A program made the translations under genes and the position numbers. A DNA stretch of 64,000 nt from a virus (taxonomy: Duplodnaviria; Caudoviricetes): the IMG/VR virus record IMGVR_UViG_3300046030_000054, positions 1 through 64,000 of that record; one strand, written 5' to 3'. How positions within the stretch are numbered: position 1 is the stretch's first letter; each line of letters starts with the position of its first letter. This document shows, piece by piece, positions 8,165 to 53,110 of this stretch. A model generated the notes under the pieces. That model was not told the origin of the DNA. It did not search any database and saw only the letters and a program-made list of their open reading frames with translations.

Positions 8165-8383
8165 TTACTTTCGTACGATCTCCATAATGTCACTAATATC
8201 GCAGTCTAAGGCCTTACAAACCTTTAGTAATACCTCAATCGTAACATTACCATTCCTACCCAACTTAGCAATTGAAGCGGCACTAACTCCACTAGCCTGT
8301 TGTAGATCTTTCTTTTTCATGCCACGATCAATTAATAGCTTCCATAATTTGTTGTAACTGATGCTTAAGTTTTCGTTATTCAT
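8165..8383 (-). CDS. Cro/C1-type HTH regulator (HTH_26-like)
   Basis: ISYNKLWKLLIDRGMKKKDL..SAASIAKL..CKALDC; paralogue at 48920-49165. Confidence 0.85.
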   Translation of the reverse strand: MNNENLSISYNKLWKLLIDRGMKKKDLQQASGVSAASIAKLGRNGNVTIEVLLKVCKALDCDISDIMEIVRK

Positions 8384-8394
8384 GATTACTTCCT

Positions 8395-11007
8395 CTAAAT
8401 AAAAATTTCTGGAACGTTTATTTCAATTTCCTTAGTCTCACTAACAGCATCAAGATCGTTCGCTTTTAAAATATTCTTGGAGACAAAGTAATTATTATCG
8501 GTTTGAATGATAAATTCATCTTTATTGTCTTCTATATATTCTGAGGATTCTCTGGAATAACCATTCTGCTGTAACCAAATCCGTAAGTCACTATCTGTTC
8601 CATACTCCATGAAACGATACCAGTCATTCTGAGGTGGCATTCCACTCTTAGTTAACTCCTGGGTAACTTTCAAGAAATATTTACCTAATACAAACTGAAG
8701 ATTTTGCAATCTTTTCATCACTAAATTAATGGTTATAGTCTCCCAGTCAATATTAGGGGTATTCTCATGGTATTGCCTTACCCTATTAAGAAATCTTGTA
8801 TCTCCACGCTCAGGATCACGGATTTGAATTGCAAAGTCGCAAATCCGTTGCAGGCTGTACCCACTCATCCAAAGTAAGGCTATTTTAGCGTCATCCTCGA
8901 TGACCTTATCTTGAGTTTCCTTGTCTTGTTTTGACTTAACAAAGTCGGATTCATAAATAGCCCAGTTAAATATTTCTGATAGTTTGAGTAAAAAAGCTTT
9001 GGCTTCCGGCCACCTCAATTTTTCCCCATCATGAATATTAGGATATCCTTTAATATTTTCCTGACTAATCTTGTTTCTAAGACTTTCAGACTGATCAGAA
9101 GAGAAGTTAATATCATCCTCTAATTCGTCAACATATCGTTCTTGTAAGGATTGTAAAATTTTTCGTTCTTCTTTGTAGGTTATATGTTTTGCTAAATGGG
9201 TTCTAACTACTCCATGATGATCATTCCGTAATTCCTTGACATAAAGTAATGATAATTTTCGAATTAAATCATAGTTCTTATCTTTTTCAATGTTATCTAA
9301 ACGCACATCGCCTTTCTCCAGGCTCTTCTTAATTGCTGCCGCTTGCTTAGGCTTAATAACATCAACAGATGACTTAGCTTTTTTTAGTCTGTTATTCATC
9401 CTAGATAAATAAGCAGCACGGTTACTATGCGAATTCGCTGTATCACCAGTAATTAGAAAGACATTTCCTAGCATGGAGTGACCTAACCTACCCACTCGAC
9501 CAATTAAGTTCAAGAAGTCTAATTGACTGAGCGTCCTTTTTCCATTTTGCAGCGTAGTAACGAAAATATTATCAGCCAGCAAATTTACTCCCTCTAGTAG
9601 GGTACTGGTGCAGAAAACCAGCTTTAAGATTCCTTGCCGACAGGCTTCCTCGATTCTAATGCGAACGTCAACTGGCAATTCTCCAGTGTGGAAGGCTATT
9701 CCTTTTCTAACTAGTTTTACCAAGATGTATTTAGGGTGAATTTTACGTGAAATATAATCAGCTAACTCTATCAACCTTAGATCGTTACTTTCTTCCATTG
9801 AACGACTAACAACCACAGCATCTGAAATAGCATTTACTTTTGAACCGTAATAAACCAAATTGCAATTACTATTCCCTAAAACTCTCATCATCTTCCGAAT
9901 AATATCTGGTACTGATAGCGTTTCTTTAAATTTACCTATCGGAATAGTATTTTGATTCAAATCATCATATACTTCCGCTTTATTAGCATAGCGATCAAAG
10001 ATAATTTCCACCTGGGTTACTGGGGATTCGACAATGCGAAGGCCATCATTCGATGCGGCTGTTTGTACTAACTTTTTAAATATTCCTGGATTTGGAATCA
10101 ATGGTGAGGCAAAGGTTACCTTCGGTCGATTTTTCCATGCACTAACCCTGTCAAATATTTCATAGTAAAAGACACTACGCGAACTTGCTTCTGTAACTTT
10201 TTGAGACTCATCAATAAACAGGTGTATTAACCGTGCTTCTGAATATTGTGTTAAAAGGGCTAATAGGCGTTCAGGAGTCATTACGCAAATATAGCTTCCC
10301 TCGTAATCTATCCTGTACTCTTCAGGATGAGAAATGACTCGATATTGTTTTTCGCCTAATTTTGCCCCTAAATCCTTAATAAGCCGAACCTTTACTTCGG
10401 TAATGAGTGCCTTGCTTGGTACAGTGATCGCAAAGTTGCCTACGACACCCTCCTTCACTTGAAGCTCAATATACTTCTCAATTAAAAAGGTCTTCCCCAT
10501 TGATGTTGGAGCTGAAAAACTAGTAAGTTCATTGCTCAAAGACTTAAAAAGTATATCTTGCTTACCGATAAACGACTTACTTTCTTCTCCAGGAATCTGG
10601 CGTTTCTCTTTTTGATAGTTTACCAAGGCTTCGTTCCATAACTGCTCAATTGTTGGAACTAGCGTATAGCTTTGTCCTTGACGAGGCAAAAAGTTGTTAA
10701 AGCTGGTCAAAACCTCATTAGTAATCAGTGAAACCTCAGGATCGTTAGGATACATTTTGGATAGAGTAGCAACAATTTTCAAGGCACTATTTTTTTGCCT
10801 ACTGTCTCCCTTTTTATTGATTGATTTTGATAGCAAATCAGCGAAGCGTAGAAGATCATGTTTCTGCTTTCCTGTTAACTTCCAATCTAGATGAAATAGC
10901 CAGCAACCATACTGCTTAGACAAAATACTCATCAGCTTGTGTAAGTAATCATCATTTTCTAAATACTCGTAAAGATATTCGCCCAATCTTTTTTCTTGTT
11001 GTGGCAT
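8395..11007 (-). CDS. hamB: Hachiman HamB-like DEAD/DEAH helicase
   Basis: SAPTSMGKT, FIDESQK, GIAFHTGELP, CTSTLLEGVNL, NLIGRVGR; directly downstream of a HamA-like gene. Confidence 0.8.
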   Translation of the reverse strand: MPQQEKRLGEYLYEYLENDDYLHKLMSILSKQYGCWLFHLDWKLTGKQKHDLLRFADLLSKSINKKGDSRQKNSALKIVATLSKMYPNDPEVSLITNEVLTSFNNFLPRQGQSYTLVPTIEQLWNEALVNYQKEKRQIPGEESKSFIGKQDILFKSLSNELTSFSAPTSMGKTFLIEKYIELQVKEGVVGNFAITVPSKALITEVKVRLIKDLGAKLGEKQYRVISHPEEYRIDYEGSYICVMTPERLLALLTQYSEARLIHLFIDESQKVTEASSRSVFYYEIFDRVSAWKNRPKVTFASPLIPNPGIFKKLVQTAASNDGLRIVESPVTQVEIIFDRYANKAEVYDDLNQNTIPIGKFKETLSVPDIIRKMMRVLGNSNCNLVYYGSKVNAISDAVVVSRSMEESNDLRLIELADYISRKIHPKYILVKLVRKGIAFHTGELPVDVRIRIEEACRQGILKLVFCTSTLLEGVNLLADNIFVTTLQNGKRTLSQLDFLNLIGRVGRLGHSMLGNVFLITGDTANSHSNRAAYLSRMNNRLKKAKSSVDVIKPKQAAAIKKSLEKGDVRLDNIEKDKNYDLIRKLSLLYVKELRNDHHGVVRTHLAKHITYKEERKILQSLQERYVDELEDDINFSSDQSESLRNKISQENIKGYPNIHDGEKLRWPEAKAFLLKLSEIFNWAIYESDFVKSKQDKETQDKVIEDDAKIALLWMSGYSLQRICDFAIQIRDPERGDTRFLNRVRQYHENTPNIDWETITINLVMKRLQNLQFVLGKYFLKVTQELTKSGMPPQNDWYRFMEYGTDSDLRIWLQQNGYSRESSEYIEDNKDEFIIQTDNNYFVSKNILKANDLDAVSETKEIEINVPEIFI

Positions 11008-11011
11008 ACTC

Positions 11012-12411
11012 TTATTCTCCTATCAAATCCTTCATTATCGCATGAGTATCCTCTTCAGCATTAGTAAAAGGTAACAAGTACACATAAAACGACGATTTTT
11101 GCCAATGATGCTGCTGAATAACTATATTCAATTGCCTAATCGCTTGTTCCAAATCACAATTAATAGCTTGACGACACTTCTGTTTTGCTTCTTCTTGCGT
11201 GCAATCGTCTAAATCTAATTGGGTTCTAAACTTATAGCCAATAAAGATCCCATATGATGCAATATCTTCAAAGTCTGTTTCAGTTGGTGCCATTAACTTA
11301 ATAATGGTATTACTCTTATCTTCACCAAATTGTGTCCGAAGAATGGAACGGTCAACTATGTCAGTAGCCAGTACCATCTCATTGGACCGATTATTATCAA
11401 AAGTTGCTATCTTCTTCACTACATTATTAATTGCATCCTCGAGATTATTGTTTAATTGTGATGCCCCAAGGATTAGTTGATTTTTACCTTGGTCTCTTTT
11501 TAGGTATATGCCTTCGCTGTCGATCGTTCGCTTGAATTTTAAAATTTCCGCCCTGGTATAGAGTTTAAGTGCGTTATCCTCATGCTCTAAAAAATATATG
11601 CTAGCAATTCACCTAGTAAATTATTTGGAATACCACTTTTAGCATATTTTCTTAGTAAATTGGCTGCCCGTAAACCTACAACAGCTGTTTTACTAACTCC
11701 ACGGGCTATTGCGTAGCTAGTAATATTGGATGTCACTAGATTCTTTAAATTCGTATAGCTAAAAGGCAACAACTCTGGCTTCAAAACAAAAGCATGAATT
11801 GAGTTTCTATTTTTTACAGCATCTATCTCACTAGCATTAACCTGACGAAAGACTGTTGAGAACGTCTCATCTGAAACAGTTTTTGTAAATATATCCTTAT
11901 CCTCACTTTTTGTGGGGATTTTTTGTTTTCGCCTATTTTTTCTGCTCGCTACTTTTTCAAACTCTTCAGTAAATAAGTTGGCTAATAATGCTGGTACTTT
12001 ACCTCGATACACATCTGGTGAAATTCCATCCTTCTTCAATTTCTTAGCAATCAAAGTTAACTGATCTGCGCCAATTTTGTTGAAATATTCTTCCAGCGAA
12101 GATGTTTCTTTGTTTATTAAGTTCAGCAGTTTTTTAGAAGCAGATCTGGAGATTCCATCAGTGGCATACGTATTCAATGTTGATGAGGCAGGCATGGGTG
12201 AGTATTGGTTATCTGACGCATGCTCGATTATCAAGCTAACTGTTTCTTCTTTTGAAGTATCTGCCGCATCCGGTAAATAAGGATTGACCAAATCTATTAA
12301 ATAAGTGAAATTAGCTTCTTTTGCCATTTTGCTTCCCAGCTTTTTTGGAGTTTTTCGGAGTTTCATATAAAAACTCGGAGGTTGATTTATGCCCATCTTG
12401 TTATTATTCAA
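11012..12411 (-). pseudogene. hamA: Hachiman HamA-like nuclease with long N-terminal extension, split by a 1-nt frameshift in a T6 run (ORFs 11587-12411 and 11012-11419)
   Basis: Adding one T at 11589-11594 gives LGELLAYIF-LEHEDNALKLY..DSEGIYL..LILGASQL running in frame into the 11419 ORF; probable start 12327. Confidence 0.8.
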
Positions 12412-12554
12412 ATATCAGCTAGAGATTAGTGCTTAACAATAATAATTATACCAGACTGACACCGCTTTCTCGGATAATTATTTTTGCATTCGCACATTTT
12501 TTTGGCTGATAAGCATGGGATGAGTGATTAACATCCATTACTAGCATGCGCCGA

Positions 12555-12700
12555 ATTGAATAACACTCTGTAACAAAGCCACTAGTAAGGCGCTGTTGCA
12601 GTACCCAAGCGATCTCTTCGTTTAGGTCTGTTTAACACACCCTAGTGGCTTTTAATGTGCCTTCGATTCCTTCGCTTGGGAGATCCCAAACGGAGGTTTT
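12555..12700 (+). ncRNA. Putative structured 5' leader RNA (nested helices plus pseudoknot) upstream of the sigma gene
   Basis: AAGCCACTAG/CTAGTGGCTT, TGTT/AACA, loop CCCAAGCGA pairing with downstream TCGCTTGGG; compensatory changes versus the E2 copy. Confidence 0.6.
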
Positions 12701-12705
12701 ATTAA

Positions 12706-13224
12706 ATGAAGACAAATAATAGTGAGTACGAATTAGTCGGTGAACAAAATAACAAGCTAATCGTCCGTGTAAAGCATATGGGCAACCAAACAGTAGTGAT
12801 CACTAAAGCTGAAGGCAATGTCATTTTCGACTTTGACCATCAACAATATAATTCCGATCACCGAAACGAACGTCACCAAGATAAGTTCTTCAAGCAAGAT
12901 CCATCTGATCCAGATATGAATATGATGGACACCCTGGCGGACCGCGAATCTATTGAAGTCACCTCGATTTATGGTGAGGATAGCCTACTCGACAAAATCG
13001 TTGAAAAAGAGGGCCGTCAAAGTCGACAAATGTTAGCTGGGCAATTATCGACTGCCTTAGCTACCTTAACGAATAAACAAAAATATGCCGTGACTCAGTA
13101 TTACTATAATGGCGTCAAGAAAAATCAAATTGCCAAGAAGATGGGTATCAGCAAGGTTATGGCCGGTCGACATGTGAAAGCTGCTATCAAAAAGCTACGC
13201 CAATTTTACAACATTGAAGATTAA
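12706..13224 (+). CDS. Sigma-70 region-4 / ECF-like sigma factor
   Basis: C-terminal LTNKQKYAV..YYY..KKNQIAKKMGISKVMAGRHVKAAIKKLR HTH. Confidence 0.8.
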   Translation: MKTNNSEYELVGEQNNKLIVRVKHMGNQTVVITKAEGNVIFDFDHQQYNSDHRNERHQDKFFKQDPSDPDMNMMDTLADRESIEVTSIYGEDSLLDKIVEKEGRQSRQMLAGQLSTALATLTNKQKYAVTQYYYNGVKKNQIAKKMGISKVMAGRHVKAAIKKLRQFYNIED

Positions 13225-13247
13225 TTTGAGAAAAGTGGACCACAGTA

Positions 13248-13286
13248 GGTTCACTTTTTTGCTGTTTCTGGCTAATAGATGTGAGG
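13248..13286 (+). promoter_or_regulatory. Conserved motif GGTTYACTTT-N10-CTGGCWWAT, putative element-sigma promoter (overlaps a terminator-like hairpin)
   Basis: Five copies with identical spacing in the window. Confidence 0.6.
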
Positions 13287-13319
13287 AGTAACTCACGAAA
13301 CCTAACGAAAGGAGACCAG

Positions 13320-13526
13320 ATGATGGCAAATAAGGTATCAATCAAGGTCACTAAGCACCCTCACCAAGAAGGTGTTGTCATTATGCGCAACATCACTATC
13401 CGGGAACGATTGCTCCGGCTACTGCTTGGCAAGCCGCATCACTTGATGGTGATTGCGCCCGGCAAGGATGTTCAGCAGCTACAGATTAATAAGGTAAAGG
13501 AGGCTTCACATGAGTACAATGAATGA
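13320..13526 (+). CDS. Small conserved hypothetical protein
   Basis: RBS AAAGGAG before ATG 13320; near-identical paralogue 53211-53414. Confidence 0.7.
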   Translation: MMANKVSIKVTKHPHQEGVVIMRNITIRERLLRLLLGKPHHLMVIAPGKDVQQLQINKVKEASHEYNE

Positions 13527-13845
13527 TTTGGATCTGCAAATAAAAGAACGCGAAGAATTCTATCATCGCATGGCTGAAGAGGCGGTGGAAGGTCTTAAAA
13601 CCATTCAGGCCGTTCGTCAGCAGTTATCCGGCGGCAACAATAATCAAGATGTTAATGAAAAGCCGAAACGTAATCCGGTTCAAGATAAGGTCACGATCCG
13701 TCAACTGCTGGCTAAGAGGTGCCAAGAAGGTTATACCAACCAGGTCAAGGACCTCCTTCACAAGTTCGGTGCTGACAAGCTGTCAGATGTCAATTCTAAG
13801 GATTACGAGGATCTCTATTACAGCGCAGAGGGGATTGGACAATGA
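13510..13845 (+). CDS. Hypothetical protein typical upstream of DUF2800 in phage replication modules
   Basis: C-terminal VKDLLHKFGADKLSDV motif; paralogue in E2. Confidence 0.7.
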   Translation: MSTMNDLDLQIKEREEFYHRMAEEAVEGLKTIQAVRQQLSGGNNNQDVNEKPKRNPVQDKVTIRQLLAKRCQEGYTNQVKDLLHKFGADKLSDVNSKDYEDLYYSAEGIGQ

Positions 13846-14981
13846 GTTCACCTAAACACCATGCCTTACTATCGGCTTCCAGCGCCAATCGCTGGTTAAG
13901 TGCTCCACCGCTGCCACGTTTAGAACAATACTTCCCGCACTCCACTTCAAGTGCAGCCGCCGAAGGAACTGCTGCCCACGCCTTGGGTGAATACAAGATC
14001 CATCGACTGCTCGGTGACCAATTCAAACGTCCTGTTTCTGATTACCAATCGGATGAAATGGAAAGCCTGACTGACGACTACGCCAGTTATGTCTTGGAGC
14101 AATACCAAAAGGCTAAACGGTATGCTAAGGATGCCACCATCAGCGTTGAACAGAAGTTGGACTTCTCCAAATATGTCCCAGATGGCTTCGGCACTGGTGA
14201 CTGTGTGATTGTTTCTGACCACCTGCTCCATATCATCGACTTCAAATATGGTAAAGGTGTCCGTGTTGAAGCTAAGAATAACCCACAAATGAAGCTTTAC
14301 GCGATCGGAGCCCTTGAGATGTTCGGCAGCCTTTACAACGTCGATGAAGTCGAAACAACGATCTTTCAACCCCGCATGGCCAACATCAGTACCTGGACTA
14401 TTAATGCTAAAGAACTAATGCATTGGGCCAATACCGAATTAAAAGCAAAGGCCGAACTCGCCTTTACTGGCAAAGGTACTGTCCATTATGGTCCTTGGTG
14501 TCAATTTTCCACTTGTAATGCGGTACTGCGAGCACGTTTTGACTATCATCACAAGCTCACCCGCTTTCAACTACGGTCACCGAACTTGCTAACAGATAGT
14601 GAGGTTACTGAAGTACTAGAGCACATTGATGATCTAAACCGCTGGGCTCACGAAGTTAAAGACTATGCTGCCAACTTAGCCATTAACCATGGGAAACAGT
14701 GGCCCGGCTACAAAATCGTTGAAGGACGATCTGTTCGTCATTATAAAGATGAAGCAGCTATAGCAAAAATTGCTGAAGAACACGGCTACCATGATATTTA
14801 TCAAAAGAAGCTACTGCCAATTACAAAACTAGAAAAACAGCTCGGTAAGAAGAAATTCACTGAACTGTTTAGTCAAGAAATTGTAAAACCTGCGGGTAAG
14901 CCAACCTTGGTGCCAAATTCCGATCAACGTCAGAGTATTAGCAAATCTAACCCACAAGATGAATTTAAGGAGGAAAAATAA
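13842..14981 (+). CDS. DUF2800 PD-(D/E)XK (Cas4-like) nuclease
   Basis: HALLSASS..W, EGTAAH, FGTGDC..IIDFKYGKG, CQFSTC. Confidence 0.85.
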   Translation: MSSPKHHALLSASSANRWLSAPPLPRLEQYFPHSTSSAAAEGTAAHALGEYKIHRLLGDQFKRPVSDYQSDEMESLTDDYASYVLEQYQKAKRYAKDATISVEQKLDFSKYVPDGFGTGDCVIVSDHLLHIIDFKYGKGVRVEAKNNPQMKLYAIGALEMFGSLYNVDEVETTIFQPRMANISTWTINAKELMHWANTELKAKAELAFTGKGTVHYGPWCQFSTCNAVLRARFDYHHKLTRFQLRSPNLLTDSEVTEVLEHIDDLNRWAHEVKDYAANLAINHGKQWPGYKIVEGRSVRHYKDEAAIAKIAEEHGYHDIYQKKLLPITKLEKQLGKKKFTELFSQEIVKPAGKPTLVPNSDQRQSISKSNPQDEFKEEK

Positions 14982-14982
14982 T

Positions 14983-15534
14983 ATGTCACAACAAACTAAG
15001 GTCGTTACCGGTATCAACACTCGTCTCTCTTATGCCAACATCTGGGAACCTAAGTCTATCAATGGTGGTAAGGAAAAGTATTCAGTTAGTCTAATCATCC
15101 CCAAGTCCGATCAAAAGACAGTCACTGCCATCGAAAAAGCTATCGATGCTGCCATTCAGGAAGGAATTGGAAAGTTTGGTGGTAAGAAGCCTAATAAGGC
15201 CACTCTCAAGCTACCTCTTCGAGATGGGGATGTGGAGCGTGATGATGCCGCCTACCAAGATAGTTACTTTATCAATGCTAATTCGATCACGGCACCACAG
15301 ATTGTGGATAAGCATGTCCAACCAATCCTTGATCGTGATGAAGTTTACAGTGGCTGCTATGCCCGAGTATCGATTAACTTCTATGCTTTTAACACCAACG
15401 GTAACCGTGGAATTGCCTGTGGCCTGGGTAACATCCAAAAGATCCGTGATGGAGAACCACTAGGTGGACATGCTAGTGCCAGCGATGACTTCACAGCGAT
15501 TGATGGTAGCAATGACGATGATTTCTTAGCTTAA
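14983..15534 (+). CDS. DUF2815 phage single-stranded DNA-binding protein
   Basis: KYSVSLIIPK, LPLRDGD, YSGCYAR, GLGNIQKIRDGEPLGG, acidic DDDF tail. Confidence 0.88.
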   Translation: MSQQTKVVTGINTRLSYANIWEPKSINGGKEKYSVSLIIPKSDQKTVTAIEKAIDAAIQEGIGKFGGKKPNKATLKLPLRDGDVERDDAAYQDSYFINANSITAPQIVDKHVQPILDRDEVYSGCYARVSINFYAFNTNGNRGIACGLGNIQKIRDGEPLGGHASASDDFTAIDGSNDDDFLA

Positions 15535-48919: not shown

Positions 48920-49165
48920 CTATTCTTCGTTAATTGGTACAGTTTCACAAATGTCATTAAGATTGCAGTCTAAGCCAGTGCATATCTTCATTAAAAGATC
49001 AGTAGTAACATTAGCATCTTTTCCTAACTTAGCAACGGAAGCAGCGCTAATATCGCATTCAGTTTGCAAATCTTTTTTCTGTAATCCCCGATCAATTAAC
49101 AATTTCCACAATTTCTTGTAACTAACCTTATATTTAATTTTTAAGTTATTTGGTTGCTTGCTCAT
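48920..49165 (-). CDS. Cro/C1-type HTH regulator (HTH_26-like)
   Basis: VSYKKLWKLLIDRGLQKKDL; paralogue of 8165-8383. Confidence 0.85.
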   Translation of the reverse strand: MSKQPNNLKIKYKVSYKKLWKLLIDRGLQKKDLQTECDISAASVAKLGKDANVTTDLLMKICTGLDCNLNDICETVPINEE

Positions 49166-50801
49166 TCCATGATCTCCCAAACAGTTCTTTACCACCACGT
49201 TCAAGTGTCAGAACTGTATTCTCTCTAATAATCTCTTGTGCTTTTTCTGATAATACTTCAATACTATCAATCGAAATAAATATCTGCTTAGTTTCTTGAG
49301 CATACATTTCAATAATTCTATTTCTACGATCAATCTCAATATTTGAAAATAGTAGTGAATCATGAACAAAAAATGGTAGATGTGTTAAGTCAAGACAAGC
49401 TTGATCGAAAATAATTAATCCCTTGAATGATGTACCTGTACCTTGGTCATTAATCGTCTCAAAATTGTATCCTGTTGGTTTTAATTCAATTCGTGGAGGT
49501 TGAAATGAACTAGATCCGCAGACCTGCACATTTAAACTAGCCATTTTGGTGTTCAAAGAGTGCTGTACCTCTGCCAATTCAGTATTGATAGTCGCTTTTA
49601 AAGCATCTTGCTGATCTTTCTTGTCTTGTTGTAGCTTTTTCTTCTTCTGATAATTTTTATTTTCGTCTTCTAATTGCTTCAATTCTGCTTTTTTATCAGC
49701 ATACTCATTAAGTAAAGCAGTTTGGACATTTGGCCCTTGTTGATTCTTTATTTTTTGTGCTTCATTAACTAGTTGAGAAATATGATGACTTAAATCCTCA
49801 ACATTTTCTTCAATAGTATTTTTCTCTCGTTCAAACTCTAGTTTAAGGAACTTAGTAATTTGATGATGGAATTTATCTATTTTTTCAATTCTTTGGATAT
49901 CTACATCAGGAAAGAATTGCTCTAATTCATGATAATTATTTCGATACCTTTTAGGTCCGGCTTCTTCATTAGACTTTATGACATTTAATCTACTCAAGTA
50001 GATATTCTTCTGTTCCCTAAGTTGGGATAGATCATTTCTTATTTCTCTTAAACGTGCTGCTTGCATATCATCTAAGTTTAATGAGCCTTCATTATTTTCA
50101 GATTGTAAGTCTGACAGCTTTTGTTTAAGGTGTTCAATTTTGTTTAGATTTTCGTTAAACCGTCTTTTTGTATCAACTATTGGAACATACCTGTATGTCC
50201 CTGCATTTTTAAATGCTGTGTAAGCTTCCTCGGCTTTTTTTGCTGCCTCTTCTCTATTCTCAATAGGAGAATATTTGTCAAACAACTTCAGTAATCCATA
50301 GACCTGCTGTTTAGCCGGCTCTTGATTGCTATTTTGCAAGGGTCTTTTTTCATTTGTAGTTTGACGATTATAAACCCTCATAAAACGGCCAACTGCACCT
50401 CTAAATGTTAGTCCGGGTAAATCCAAATTATATTGCTCAGACAAAAAATCGAGATACTCCTCGACAGTTATTTTCTTATTATCTTTAGGGATGAATTTCT
50501 CGTTACAAATATAGATGTATTGAAAATCTTCTGTTGACCTTGAAAAATAATACTTTTTATCATTAAACTCAAAAGCGAACTTTATAATATGAGGACCTAC
50601 ATTTTTCTGGACATCAAGGTCCTTTTTCACATAATCAGTTCCACCAAATACAAAGTCGATAATCATCAAAAGCGTTGATTTCCCAATTGAATTAGTTCCG
50701 CTATGACCACCTAAAATCACATTTAGCCCTTTATTAAAATAAATTGGTCCACGTGGGTGCCCATCGACCATAAACTGATCACAACTAATTTGTTTTAACA
50801 C
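49146..50801 (-). CDS. lmuB: ABC-three-component / Lamassu ATPase (DUF2326-like)
   Basis: GTNSIGKST Walker A, coiled coil, QGTGTSF signature, FVHDS Walker B. Confidence 0.8.
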   Translation of the reverse strand: MLKQISCDQFMVDGHPRGPIYFNKGLNVILGGHSGTNSIGKSTLLMIIDFVFGGTDYVKKDLDVQKNVGPHIIKFAFEFNDKKYYFSRSTEDFQYIYICNEKFIPKDNKKITVEEYLDFLSEQYNLDLPGLTFRGAVGRFMRVYNRQTTNEKRPLQNSNQEPAKQQVYGLLKLFDKYSPIENREEAAKKAEEAYTAFKNAGTYRYVPIVDTKRRFNENLNKIEHLKQKLSDLQSENNEGSLNLDDMQAARLREIRNDLSQLREQKNIYLSRLNVIKSNEEAGPKRYRNNYHELEQFFPDVDIQRIEKIDKFHHQITKFLKLEFEREKNTIEENVEDLSHHISQLVNEAQKIKNQQGPNVQTALLNEYADKKAELKQLEDENKNYQKKKKLQQDKKDQQDALKATINTELAEVQHSLNTKMASLNVQVCGSSSFQPPRIELKPTGYNFETINDQGTGTSFKGLIIFDQACLDLTHLPFFVHDSLLFSNIEIDRRNRIIEMYAQETKQIFISIDSIEVLSEKAQEIIRENTVLTLERGGKELFGRSWNEQATK

Positions 50802-51033
50802 TGCTTATCACACCTGTTTCTTCATCAATGCAAATCCTGTTTAATATAAACAAACAATCCAACGCCTCCACAAACTCACCCACATCATCAAAATATCTTC
50901 TTGTTCTCTTATAAAGATCTTGTGGGTTCATAGCTTGTTCGTTTAGTTTTTTCATTATTTTAGGAAGACTTGCTAATGTACTTTCCTTATAGTCAGTAAC
51001 TTTACTGGGCATTTTCAACTTCAAACACCTCAC
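50785..51033 (-). CDS. lmuC: ABC-3C middle component
   Basis: Small ORF between effector and ATPase: PSKVT.YKES..ALDCLFILN.I. Confidence 0.7.
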   Translation of the reverse strand: MRCLKLKMPSKVTDYKESTLASLPKIMKKLNEQAMNPQDLYKRTRRYFDDVGEFVEALDCLFILNRICIDEETGVISSVKTN

Positions 51034-52219
51034 AATTTTGAACGAAAAAAGCCACTATAATTCTGGAAGCTTCTGAATAATCCTGAGGCAATTGTTCTTT
51101 AGCAAGAATCCAATCAGCCAAGTGATTAAATATTTCTTCCTGATCTAGTTGCTCACGCTTAAATTTAAAATAGGCTAACTTTATGGTGGTAGCTAATTCA
51201 TCAAAAGAAAAATCTGGACCTTCCAAATTAGAAAATTGATCTTTGATTTTGTTGTAATAACCCGAAACGTAATAACTAACAGCCCCTTGTAAGGCATAAT
51301 CATGACTTATCTTTTCTTCTACGGTATGTGCATCATAATCAATAACAGAATTCGCTAAGTTTGGTTTAACCTTCTTTAGCCCCTGAATCACTTTAGTCAA
51401 TTTTGCTTCTAAAGTTAGCTGATTTAGGCCTTGAGCGATTTGTTTTTCATTAATAACATGTTGTTTTTTCTGAATCAACCGTTGATAATCATTTAAGTTA
51501 GGATTATTGAGATAAACATTCGCACAATTTAAACATAATGGGATTTTATTTTCTAAGGCATCTGAATTTTCAGGTGCCTTTTTTATTTTGGCAAATTTAG
51601 CTTTTTCCTTTTCATTTAAGTTGTCAGGAAAGATATGGACAACATCATATCCTGCTATGGCATTGCTAATACCATTCTTAATCAAGCTCTCTCCACATAA
51701 AGGGAATTCTATATCGACATCATGAAGTAAACGCAAGTTATCGATGAAATTCTGATTTGTTTTGACATCATTAGTTTTTACAGAGGTTTCACCATTTTTG
51801 AACTTATTCAAAAAAGCTTTCATTATTTTGAAGCATACTTCACCCAAAGAACTTGTAGTTACTTCAAATTGCTCCTCACGCAACTTATTTCGAATGCTTT
51901 CTCTTGCTCCTGGGGCTGAAAAATTAATTTCGTCTACAAACTTTTTCCCATTACTAATTCTGCTAAGTAACTCTTTTGCATCTTTTTTAGGGATTGGCCT
52001 GGAGCCAATACAGTACTTGTTAATGGTGTCGGCTACTCTGCCTGCAAAAGGATTCAAGTCCCCACTTTGTGCTTTTTCATCCTCCACATCAGTCTGTGGA
52101 GTACGAATGATCAAATCTATTAAATGACAAAAGAATTTAGGACGCCCCTTATTATCTTTGCTCTCATCAGGGCTACCTAAATATGTCCATAGCATGTCAA
52201 AAAAATCAGAGAATTCCAT
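51002..52219 (-). CDS. lmuA: ABC-3C effector: N-terminal regulator-like domain + HNH-like nuclease + ABC-3C C-terminal domain
   Basis: PLCG..VVHIFP..IPLCLNCAN; C-terminal A.RIIVAFFVQNCEVFE. Confidence 0.7.
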   Translation of the reverse strand: MEFSDFFDMLWTYLGSPDESKDNKGRPKFFCHLIDLIIRTPQTDVEDEKAQSGDLNPFAGRVADTINKYCIGSRPIPKKDAKELLSRISNGKKFVDEINFSAPGARESIRNKLREEQFEVTTSSLGEVCFKIMKAFLNKFKNGETSVKTNDVKTNQNFIDNLRLLHDVDIEFPLCGESLIKNGISNAIAGYDVVHIFPDNLNEKEKAKFAKIKKAPENSDALENKIPLCLNCANVYLNNPNLNDYQRLIQKKQHVINEKQIAQGLNQLTLEAKLTKVIQGLKKVKPNLANSVIDYDAHTVEEKISHDYALQGAVSYYVSGYYNKIKDQFSNLEGPDFSFDELATTIKLAYFKFKREQLDQEEIFNHLADWILAKEQLPQDYSEASRIIVAFFVQNCEVFEVENAQ

Positions 52220-52303
52220 ATCAATCACGCTCAACTTTCGGACAAAAAAGGGCAGATTTTGTCCCAAACTGTCCGAGTTCATATTTTCTTTTCAAATATA
52301 CTG

Positions 52304-52337
52304 ATTGTGAATTAAAGATAATAATTCAATTCACAAT
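52304..52337. promoter_or_regulatory. Inverted repeat in the divergent promoter region (candidate operator)
   Basis: ATTGTGAATT-N14-AATTCACAAT. Confidence 0.45.
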
Positions 52338-52449
52338 TTAAGTATATCGTTTACATACACGGTTCTCAATATTTAATATGCGAACGCGAATTTTATCTAT
52401 TGATTCAGCATGCATCGTCAAGCTAACGGTGTTCCAGCATGCTTCTTAA

Positions 52450-52585
52450 TTGAATACTTTTACTGCAACCAGCCACTGGAAGGTTTGCTGCAGTCCCGAA
52501 ACGAATGAGTTTTGGACTGCTTAGCACACTACCAGTGGCTCTTTTGGTCCTTTGCCTTCGTTTCGGGAGACCGGAACGGAGGCTT
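52450..52585 (+). ncRNA. Putative structured leader RNA, paralogue of 12555-12700
   Basis: AGCCACTGG/CCAGTGGCT, TGCT/AGCA, GCAGTCC/GGACTGC, pseudoknot CCCGAAACGAA/TTCGTTTCGGG. Confidence 0.62.
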
Positions 52586-52591
52586 TTATTA

Positions 52592-53110
52592 ATGAAGAAA
52601 AGTAACAGTGAGTACGAATTAATCGGTGAAGAAAATGGAAAGCTAGTCGTTAGAGTCAAGCACATGGGAAACCAAGTAATCACTATCACCAAGGAACAGG
52701 GTAACGTTGCCTTTGACTTTGATCATAAGCAATATAATTCAGATCATCGAAACGAACGGCATCAGGATAAATTCTTCGCTAATTCACAGGATGATCCAGC
52801 TATTAATGCAATCGACACAATAGCGGATCGTAGTTCCATGGAAATCACATCTGTTTACAGCAAGGATAACTTATTGGATTCATTAATTGAAAAGGAAGAC
52901 CAGCGGTACCGCCAGCAATTGATTGTACAATTACCAGCTGCCCTGGCAACTTTAACTAATAAACAACGAAATGCCGTCCTCGGCTATTACTGCAAGGGAC
53001 TTAAGAAGAAAGAAATTGCTGAGAAAATGAGTATTAGCCCAACCATGGTGGGAAGACATGTTAAAGCTGGATTAGTAAAATTGCGTAGTTTTTATAACAA
53101 AAAAGAATAA
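52592..53110 (+). CDS. Sigma-70 region-4 / ECF-like sigma factor
   Basis: Paralogue of 12706-13224; RBS CGGAGG before ATG 52592. Confidence 0.8.
   Translation: MKKSNSEYELIGEENGKLVVRVKHMGNQVITITKEQGNVAFDFDHKQYNSDHRNERHQDKFFANSQDDPAINAIDTIADRSSMEITSVYSKDNLLDSLIEKEDQRYRQQLIVQLPAALATLTNKQRNAVLGYYCKGLKKKEIAEKMSISPTMVGRHVKAGLVKLRSFYNKKE

Follow-up and report, generated by a model that had tools for sequence, protein, structure and literature searches.

We analysed a 64,000-nucleotide stretch of viral DNA (the window), taken from the 75,951-base IMG/VR provirus record IMGVR_UViG_3300046030_000054. It contains two diverged copies, E1 and E2, of one kind of tailless phage-like element. In each copy, minus-strand defence genes lie to the left of a plus-strand gene for a sigma-like protein, and both leftward operons open with the same helical domain of approximately 140 residues, here called N-dom, while the effectors behind it differ. 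The E1 domain is all-alpha (11917 to 12318, minus strand; identified with the PADLOC LmuA model PDLC03857, a family profile and AlphaFold 2), measures approximately 135 residues and ends in the basic linker RKNRRKQKI; the E2 domain (51758 to 52222, minus strand) measures approximately 155 residues. These lengths replace the 150 to 180 residues that a first-pass annotation of the window had given for the two N-terminal extensions.

The first gene of the E1 operon is hamA (11012 to 12324, minus strand, likely start ATG at 12324), which encodes N-dom followed by DUF1837 and is split by a -1 frameshift at a T6 run. The open reading frame (ORF) at 11587 to 12411 is the 5' fragment and matches positions 1 to 244 of the 436-position PADLOC model PDLC00151, and the ORF at 11012 to 11419 carries positions 303 to 436 (E-values of 4e-115 and 8e-71 on the two fragments). 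The frame is interrupted at the T6 run (A6 on the plus strand, about 11589 to 11594) by a TAG after ..LLAYIF, where P0016, an intact 461-residue relative that is 99% identical, continues ..AYIFLEHED... The break is either strain-specific or an assembly error, since contigs from three metatranscriptome runs (two studies; 98 to 99% alike) carry the extra base and hence an intact hamA. DUF1837 stands beside a HamB helicase, which marks the protein as a Hachiman HamA (Pfam HamA E 3.4e-36 on intact P0016), as had been proposed, with the qualification that the gene is split. The hamB gene is intact (8395 to 11007, minus strand; PADLOC HamB1 PDLC00190, E 0, covering 2 to 869 of 870 positions). Single RNA-library contigs of 2.2 to 2.5 kb (four runs, three studies) span hamB, hamA and N-dom and stop at 12337 to 12467, while the sigma region is thinly covered or uncovered in them. 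Contigs give no ranking of expression and may stem from carried-over DNA, so transcription of the leftward operon is no more than weakly hinted at.

The closest solved relative of the E1 HamA body is AbpA (PDB 9wh1, E 3e-8), whose D-E(x)K site is reported to be inactive (PMC12278908). In a profile alignment to AbpA, the strand expected to hold E-x-K reads QLILGASQL in the HamA family consensus. On this alignment, the DUF1837 of E1 HamA may be a scaffold, as proposed for fused HamA types (PMC11914072; PMC12278908).

The E2 operon begins with an ABC-3C effector gene (51002 to 52282, minus strand) in which N-dom is followed by an HNH-like region and CTD11 (Pfam CTD11 E 8e-47, residues 283 to 420; PADLOC PDC-M68A, residues 193 to 421). 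Next come the middle component MC7 (50785 to 51033, minus strand; Pfam MC7 E 4e-30) and an ABC/SMC-like ATPase (49146 to 50801, minus strand; Pfam DUF2326 E 1.7e-14; PADLOC PDC-M68B E 5.6e-19 and LmuB E 5e-10). With effector, middle component and ATPase in this order in one operon, the set is of the ABC-3C or Lamassu type II kind. The C-terminal domain (CTD) of the effector had thus been read correctly; its HNH part is without a Pfam match and is called from motifs and PDC-M68A.

Pairwise BLASTP of the E1 against the E2 proteins found no significant similarity, and the relationship between the two N-termini was established by profile and structure comparisons. Positions 1 to 154 of PDLC03857 match both, with E 3e-6 in E1 (residues 35 to 179) and E 1.3e-17 in E2 (residues 22 to 187). 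E1 residues 36 to 171 were also found, at E 3.2e-14, by a profile of 39 family members from which every HamA-type row had been removed. Alignments of HamA-type and LmuA-type members that were built separately matched each other in hhalign at E 3e-4. AlphaFold models made from disjoint alignments have an identical helix order at a predicted local distance difference test score (pLDDT) of 93.9 for E2 (predicted template modelling score 0.87, nine helices) and 86.9 for E1, with one additional helix in E2 inside an insertion. Three uncharacterised proteins (template modelling score, TM, 0.58 to 0.79) are the sole matches in BFVD and are common to both models. The PADLOC model, the independent profile, hhalign and AlphaFold agree that E1 HamA and the ABC-3C effector of E2 have homologous N-termini and that a related domain heads both genes divergent from sigma, as the first-pass annotation had suspected. 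Because the two are related, the first ground that it had named for abandoning its functional proposal, unrelated N-termini, does not apply.

N-dom is rare. When 1.84 billion cluster representatives were searched with a profile, 52 proteins were returned; the full-length matches hold the domain at the N-terminus, at residues of approximately 1 to 140, and a few short entries that match partly look like fragments. For 43 of the 52, the C-terminal partners recognised by Pfam were CTD11 (8), CTD6 (3), HamA (3), Sel1, TPR and STAND NTPase, and most had none. No Pfam family matched N-dom itself in these 43 members or in the window proteins, an NCBIfam scan of the window N-termini gave no match, and a PDB sequence search with P0016 returned chance matches only. 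The predicted fold is all-alpha, with seven to nine helices, and no convincing solved counterpart was found in the PDB with Foldseek (best E 1.7) or with VIA, where the best Z scores of 4.1 and 4.2 are low even for helical domains. An Atlas shape search returned the N-dom family itself plus weak HTH_3 rows only. Conservation is confined to the hydrophobic core and a T-L-x-K-Y-x-x-G-x-R-x-I-x-K-x-A-x-K-I segment; there is no invariant polar residue.

The functional proposal of the first-pass annotation was that this domain is the immunity repressor of the element or an anti-sigma, and it had named fold comparison as one of the checks. In the AlphaFold, Foldseek and VIA results neither a helix-turn-helix (HTH) nor an anti-sigma fold stands out. 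A CI-like repressor or autoregulator, binding operators in the divergent region and silencing sigma, its own operon or both, would suit the place of N-dom at the 5' end beside divergent promoters. It would also suit the conserved segment, which is similar to helix 3-loop-helix 4 in XRE domains; in the relative L086 there is a sub-threshold Pfam HTH_3 match (E 0.0067, 16.9 bits where the cutoff is 23), and HTH_3 clusters make up three of the ten Atlas rows (TM 0.27 to 0.33). However, the window N-dom proteins have no HTH match in Pfam, NCBIfam or PDB, and the helix that should precede the 'recognition' helix is missing or coil in both AlphaFold models. The isoelectric point (pI) of N-dom ranges from 4.6 to 9.8, and many members are acidic (pI 4.6 to 5.3). 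Because that helix is missing in both models and the pI varies so widely, a conserved DNA-binding role for N-dom is unlikely.

The sigma-like genes lie at 12706 to 13224 in E1 (plus strand; Pfam Sigma70_r4_2 E 1e-6, NCBIfam sigma70-ECF superfamily E 3e-10) and at 52592 to 53110 in E2 (plus strand, in an ORF open from 52505; Pfam Sigma70_r4_2 E 9e-10). They are 64% identical, and region 4 is the only part recognised. The E1 divergent intergenic region, delimited by alignment, mosaic breakpoints and inverted repeats, spans 12325 to 12705. Operator-like palindromes occur at 12437 to 12486 in E1, with ATAATTAT cores, and at 52304 to 52337 in E2, and differ from each other. Downstream of these, each sigma gene has a conserved, structured leader of approximately 150 nucleotides (about 12545 to 12700 in E1 and 52420 to 52590 in E2), in which pairing is kept by compensatory changes between E1 and E2 both in helix 1 (GCCACTAG/CTAGTGGC versus GCCACTGG/CCAGTGGC) and in helix 2 (CCCAAGCGA/TCGCTTGGG versus CCGAAACGA/TCGTTTCGG). 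The predicted arrangement is pseudoknot-like or one of alternative pairing. A scan of the window against Rfam at gathering thresholds gave no family match, the leader included. The sigma ORF is itself a replaceable cassette: a type A (172 residues) and a type B (152 residues), about 21 to 29% identical, both sit between the one conserved leader and the downstream genes, and every sigma type has an invariant Y-N-x-x-H-R-x-x-R motif in its N-terminal half.

Both units also encode a stand-alone Cro/C1-type protein of the HTH_26 family. In E1 the gene is VanU-like and directly follows hamB (8165 to 8383, minus strand; Pfam HTH_26 E 7e-20, NCBIfam VanU E 8e-25, PDB 3tyr E 1.6e-21); in E2 it comes immediately behind the ABC-3C system, at 48920 to 49165 (minus strand, likely ATG start at 49165; Pfam HTH_26 E 2.6e-15). 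The two proteins are 60% identical, though the defence modules are otherwise unrelated, and most related elements carry the gene after whichever system comes first. No HTH gene abuts the divergent promoter, so the first-pass annotation was right that a CI/Cro pair is missing there, but its statement that the units have no stand-alone CI repressor does not hold. As the backbone repressor of the element, HTH_26 is a candidate only, since the fetched flanks of five related elements (L021, L024, L028, L064 and L094) yielded no copy of it. It may instead control the downstream restriction-modification (RM) genes.

DNA comparison with related loci showed that N-dom is a cassette with sharp breakpoints at 11930, in the basic linker (RKQKI), and at 12394. 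Its flanks stay 94 to 98% identical on the side of the hamA C-terminal part and hamB, and 79 to 87% identical on the side of the intergenic region and leader. Between E1 and loci L018 and L019, hamB and the hamA body are 94% identical and the intergenic region with sigma (12394 to 15000) is 87% identical, despite a replaced N-dom without nucleotide similarity. Between E1 and loci L006 and L023, N-dom and, separately, the sigma ORF (12713 to 13303) have been replaced, and the leader between them is 79% identical. At the protein level, P0033 has a 77%-identical N-dom on CTD6 instead of HamA, and in P0043 the HamA body is nearly identical and the N-dom in front of it 33% identical.

Pairs of elements show the same independence of N-dom from its neighbours. 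L006 and L018 are 74% identical in N-dom and 29% in sigma; conversely, sigma is 88% identical and N-dom 31% between E1 and L018, and 95% and 35% between L006 and L025. E1 and L006 are 98% identical in the HTH_26 region and 24% in N-dom. The overall Spearman correlation between N-dom and sigma identities was 0.25, which is attainable by linkage alone, and the co-evolution with the adjacent sigma that an anti-sigma would be expected to show was not seen. In the divergent region, positions 12325 to 12394 are exchanged along with N-dom while 12395 to 12705 are conserved across N-dom variants, and L006, whose HTH_26 is that of E1 but whose N-dom differs, retains the E1 palindrome. Because the pairwise identities are discordant and the palindrome is kept while N-dom changes, a specific partnership of N-dom with sigma, the operators or HTH_26 is not supported by these alignments.

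For a CI-like repressor, the co-swapped 70 bp upstream of the gene are a point in favour, but they are the only sign of the co-variation with divergent-region operators that would be expected, as the conserved intergenic block and its palindrome remain unchanged when N-dom changes. A canonical Cro/C1-type protein is moreover encoded in the same operon. We consider a repressor of this kind highly improbable and the weakest of the readings examined. The proposal of an immunity repressor or anti-sigma is not supported in either form, given that no HTH or sigma-binding fold was found and that a stand-alone Cro/C1-type regulator is present in both units. More plausible seats of sigma control are the stand-alone HTH_26 protein, the structured leader RNA of sigma and the palindromes conserved in the intergenic region.

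The distribution of N-dom was examined in two samples, 401 Lactobacillaceae species genomes and 401 genomes of a Clostridia-type phylum. In the Lactobacillaceae, N-dom was found at 15 places in 13 genomes and the sigma of the element at 19 places in 16. Fourteen of the 15 N-dom genes are divergent from the sigma gene and, in the other direction, the divergent gene carries N-dom at 14 of about 17 intact sigma loci; HTH_26 lies downstream at most of these loci, though not at L064. Six genomes of the Clostridia-type sample have N-dom, and four copies adjoin a sigma gene, with DUF2800 downstream confirmed at two of these loci (L091 and L094). One copy lies where a contig begins, with MC7, an ATPase and HTH_26 behind it, and another (L093) adjoins a CW_7-LysM lysin fragment and HTH_26. 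Behind N-dom, the proteins of the fetched loci continue as HamA (11 distinct proteins), HNH-CTD11 (10), CTD6 (4) or an unknown part (8). This partner survey bears out the earlier suggestion that the domain is fused to whichever effector is present, and since the change of effectors is seen across Lactobacillaceae and Clostridia-type loci, the generalisation holds far beyond the window. The data support that N-dom is tied to the leftward first gene of the element and stays while the effector changes.

Four elements (L021, L022, L024 and L028) have sigma but no detectable N-dom. In L024 the HamA bears another extension, of 225 residues, and in L022 the CTD6 protein bears another N-terminus. Comparison of the N-dom profile with the N-termini of first genes in this group by hhalign gave E 0.21 for L022, 0.036 for L021 and 0.41 for L028; these N-termini are either unrelated to N-dom or too distant to tell, with a faint motif match in L021. 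At L012/L013 and L093 the N-dom operon faces lysis genes rather than sigma (a holin and the CW_7-LysM lysin fragment, respectively), an arrangement that could have arisen by deletion within the element.

Given its strong tie to the sigma slot, N-dom may still have an element-linked role, coupling the infection sensors (HamB and the ABC-3C ATPase) to the life cycle of the element. A released N-dom would act on sigma, HTH_26 or the leader RNA, and phage infection would trigger or block replication, packaging and lysis of the element; the first-pass idea of effector-triggered induction survives in this broader form. Consistent with it, N-dom is nearly confined to the opening gene of the operon that diverges from sigma, and it is present in most elements regardless of the effector. 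No other active effector domain is evident in HamA-type and CTD6-type proteins, and N-dom and HTH_26 tend to co-occur, L021, L024 and L028 being without both. Yet the lack of co-variation with sigma, the intergenic region or HTH_26, the four sigma-bearing elements without N-dom, the copies in contexts without the element described below, and the failure to find a known anti-sigma or HTH fold all count against it, and we regard such a role as unlikely. Its most specific form, in which N-dom is the output by which co-opted sensors (the Hachiman helicase or the ABC-3C ATPase) switch a tailless capsid-forming element on or off, appears doubtful to a slightly greater degree. If it were true, sensing of an infecting (helper) phage would free N-dom onto the circuit of sigma, HTH_26 and leader RNA, and the 'effector' would be the element's own induction and lysis programme.

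N-dom also occurs away from the element. At L007 to L011, a 53%-identical homologue of the whole E2 system (N-dom-HNH-CTD11, MC7 and ATPase) lies between PglX-like and PglZ genes in a BREX-type locus, and a 961-residue protein with N-dom has no sigma gene nearby. The same is true of an 804-residue N-dom-TPR protein at L034/L035, where the next gene (268 residues) also opens with N-dom, so that the same small domain sits on neighbouring sensor-type and effector-type proteins. Identity between these two N-doms is 73%, as against 17 to 35% between family branches, and both end in the same KRNSK-x-KI linker. Judged from these sequences, the pair has the pattern of matched adaptor domains.

The rapid divergence of N-dom could also reflect contact with phage. 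As a sensing or decoy specificity domain, it would recognise phage proteins or be their target, and diversifying selection would account for a hypervariable cassette on conserved flanks, with variants 17 to 37% identical on a body 94 to 98% identical. The varying surface charge of N-dom and a fold without enzymatic signature agree with this. Sensing in ABC-3C, Hachiman and STAND systems is, however, usually assigned to the ATPase, helicase or repeats, with the N-terminus as the effector side; the matched N-doms on two neighbouring proteins fit an adaptor better; and no phage partner is known. We regard this reading, too, as unlikely.

Our best reading is that N-dom is part of the defence system and not a CI-like repressor of the element. 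Specifically, we give about an even chance to N-dom being a compact, non-catalytic, all-alpha protein-binding module at the effector or output position of sensor-controlled defence proteins. The grounds are the absence of an enzymatic signature, the effector-side placement of N-dom in three sensor architectures that are unrelated, its fast variation and its occurrence as a matched pair on neighbouring proteins. The N-terminus is where the effector sits in the ABC-3C, HamA, Sel1, TPR and STAND architectures that carry N-dom. LmuA of Lamassu is anchored by its CTD on the SMC-like ATPase LmuB, with the N-terminal domain pointing outward, and oligomerisation follows release (bioRxiv 10.1101/2025.06.23.660979); in Hachiman, DUF1837 binds HamB and DNA damage frees HamA (PMC12278908). 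HamA types I-B, I-C and I-D bear extra N-terminal domains, including unidentified 'X' ones, and their nuclease site is reportedly lost (PMC11914072).

The data themselves show the homology of N-dom, its fold class, architecture and position, the cassette swapping and the independence from sigma; by comparison with these systems, we infer protein binding and a mechanism of release and assembly. In these elements a sensor-effector system is always what the leftward operon beside sigma encodes: Hachiman HamAB in E1, and in E2 a system of three genes of the ABC-3C/Lamassu type. The first protein would be docked on the sensor ATPase or helicase by its C-terminal part (DUF1837, or CTD11 or CTD6), leaving N-dom to project free. 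When the sensor fires, the effector would be released, and N-dom would most likely drive homotypic assembly or bind a variable phage or host partner. Either assembly or binding of a variable external partner would explain why N-dom is exchanged as a hypervariable cassette.

Several observations weigh against this interpretation. The XRE-like motif, with the sub-threshold HTH_3 match of L086 and the Atlas rows at TM of approximately 0.3, would be compatible with nucleic-acid binding. The window has only one N-dom gene per element and no pair like that of L034/L035, and the N-dom proteins of L061, L093 and L094 (278 to 354 residues) have no recognisable sensor partner. Finally, the association with the sigma locus, in both directions and across at least four effector architectures, is stronger than random defence cargo would be expected to show and hints at a role linked to the element.

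Beyond the genes discussed so far, E1 and E2 have a plus-strand gene set in common. The plus-strand genes of each encode the sigma-like protein, DUF2800, an Enc34-type single-stranded-DNA-binding protein and a family A polymerase. D5_N primase, VRR-NUC, SNF2, HNH, TerS and ParB-methylase genes are also on the plus strand in each, as are those for TerL, portal, ClpP protease, capsid and a head-completion protein, and for a holin and a GH25/CW_7 lysin. Two large serine recombinases close E1. The E1 leftward set comprises hamA, hamB, the 72-residue HTH_26 gene, an Eco57I-type RM set and a GmrSD-like gene, and the E2 set comprises the ABC-3C effector (CTD11), MC7, the ABC ATPase, the HTH_26 gene, a type III RM system and more. 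Between E1 and E2, at 36777 to 39643, lie NAD-salvage genes for isochorismatase/PncA-like, NAPRTase/PncB-like and NrtR-type regulator proteins (pncA, pncB and nrtR); these may belong to the host, with an integration on either side, or possibly are cargo.

Among known systems, E1 is closest to Hachiman HamA proteins with N-terminal fusions (types I-B, I-C and I-D; AbpA, 9wh1), in which DUF1837 stands behind an extra N-terminal domain and is paired with HamB. Its DUF1837 body is closest to AbpA and seems to be without the E-x-K residues, and the architecture is already spanned by PDLC00151. It differs in the added domain, which is not Cap4 and not a peptidase but an uncharacterised domain of all-alpha fold that would be filed under 'X' (PMC11914072), is common to ABC-3C effectors and is swapped as a cassette. 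E2 resembles Lamassu type II or ABC-3C systems, having CTD11, MC7 and the ABC ATPase in the canonical order, and positions 1 to 154 of PDLC03857 contain N-dom. It also resembles the PADLOC candidate PDC-M68, since PDC-M68A and PDC-M68B match its HNH-CTD11 part and ATPase and its homologue lies in a BREX locus, as PDC-M systems do, but PDC-M68A has the HNH-like region without N-dom, which E2 adds in front. A further difference lies in the CTD6 proteins, whose sole N-terminal domain is N-dom, although this has no catalytic signature.

Two further comparisons bear on how N-dom and its operon are to be viewed. Effector-associated (Death-like) adaptor domains (EADs) of bacterial conflict systems have reportedly been described by Aravind and co-workers. 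N-dom is like them in being small, helical and N-terminal, in standing on unrelated sensors and effectors (STAND, TPR and ABC-3C) and in the matched copies of L034/L035; it is unlike them in that the Pfam models without a match to the 43 members and window proteins include those for EADs, and in its single copy per element in the window. In phage lambda, the cI-rexA-rexB immunity operon combines defence genes with a Cro/C1-type regulator and is divergent from the lytic and replicative genes. By analogy, the leftward operons of E1 and E2 would be comparable in joining defence genes and a Cro/C1-type regulator divergent from replicative genes, but the gene order is reversed relative to lambda, with defence first and the HTH gene last, and the HTH_26 protein of E1 and E2 is VanU-like and a candidate regulator.

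The gene types themselves are already known, since the PADLOC models PDLC00151 and PDLC03857 include N-dom and the literature files such HamA proteins as type I-D 'X'. What appears to be new is that one uncharacterised fold is common to Hachiman, ABC-3C and STAND/TPR proteins. Its evolution as a cassette, and its near-confinement to a single slot of one family of elements, also seem to be new. N-dom has no solved relative or Pfam family and is nearly restricted to tailless phage-like elements of Lactobacillaceae and Clostridia. The HamA 'X' domains and the 'hypothetical' Lamassu effectors are both recognised categories, and here one fold serves both, together with a few STAND/TPR proteins. N-dom thereby offers a concrete and testable way into two questions: how an effector domain that is not enzymatic works, and whether satellite-like elements connect defence sensors to the control of their own genes.

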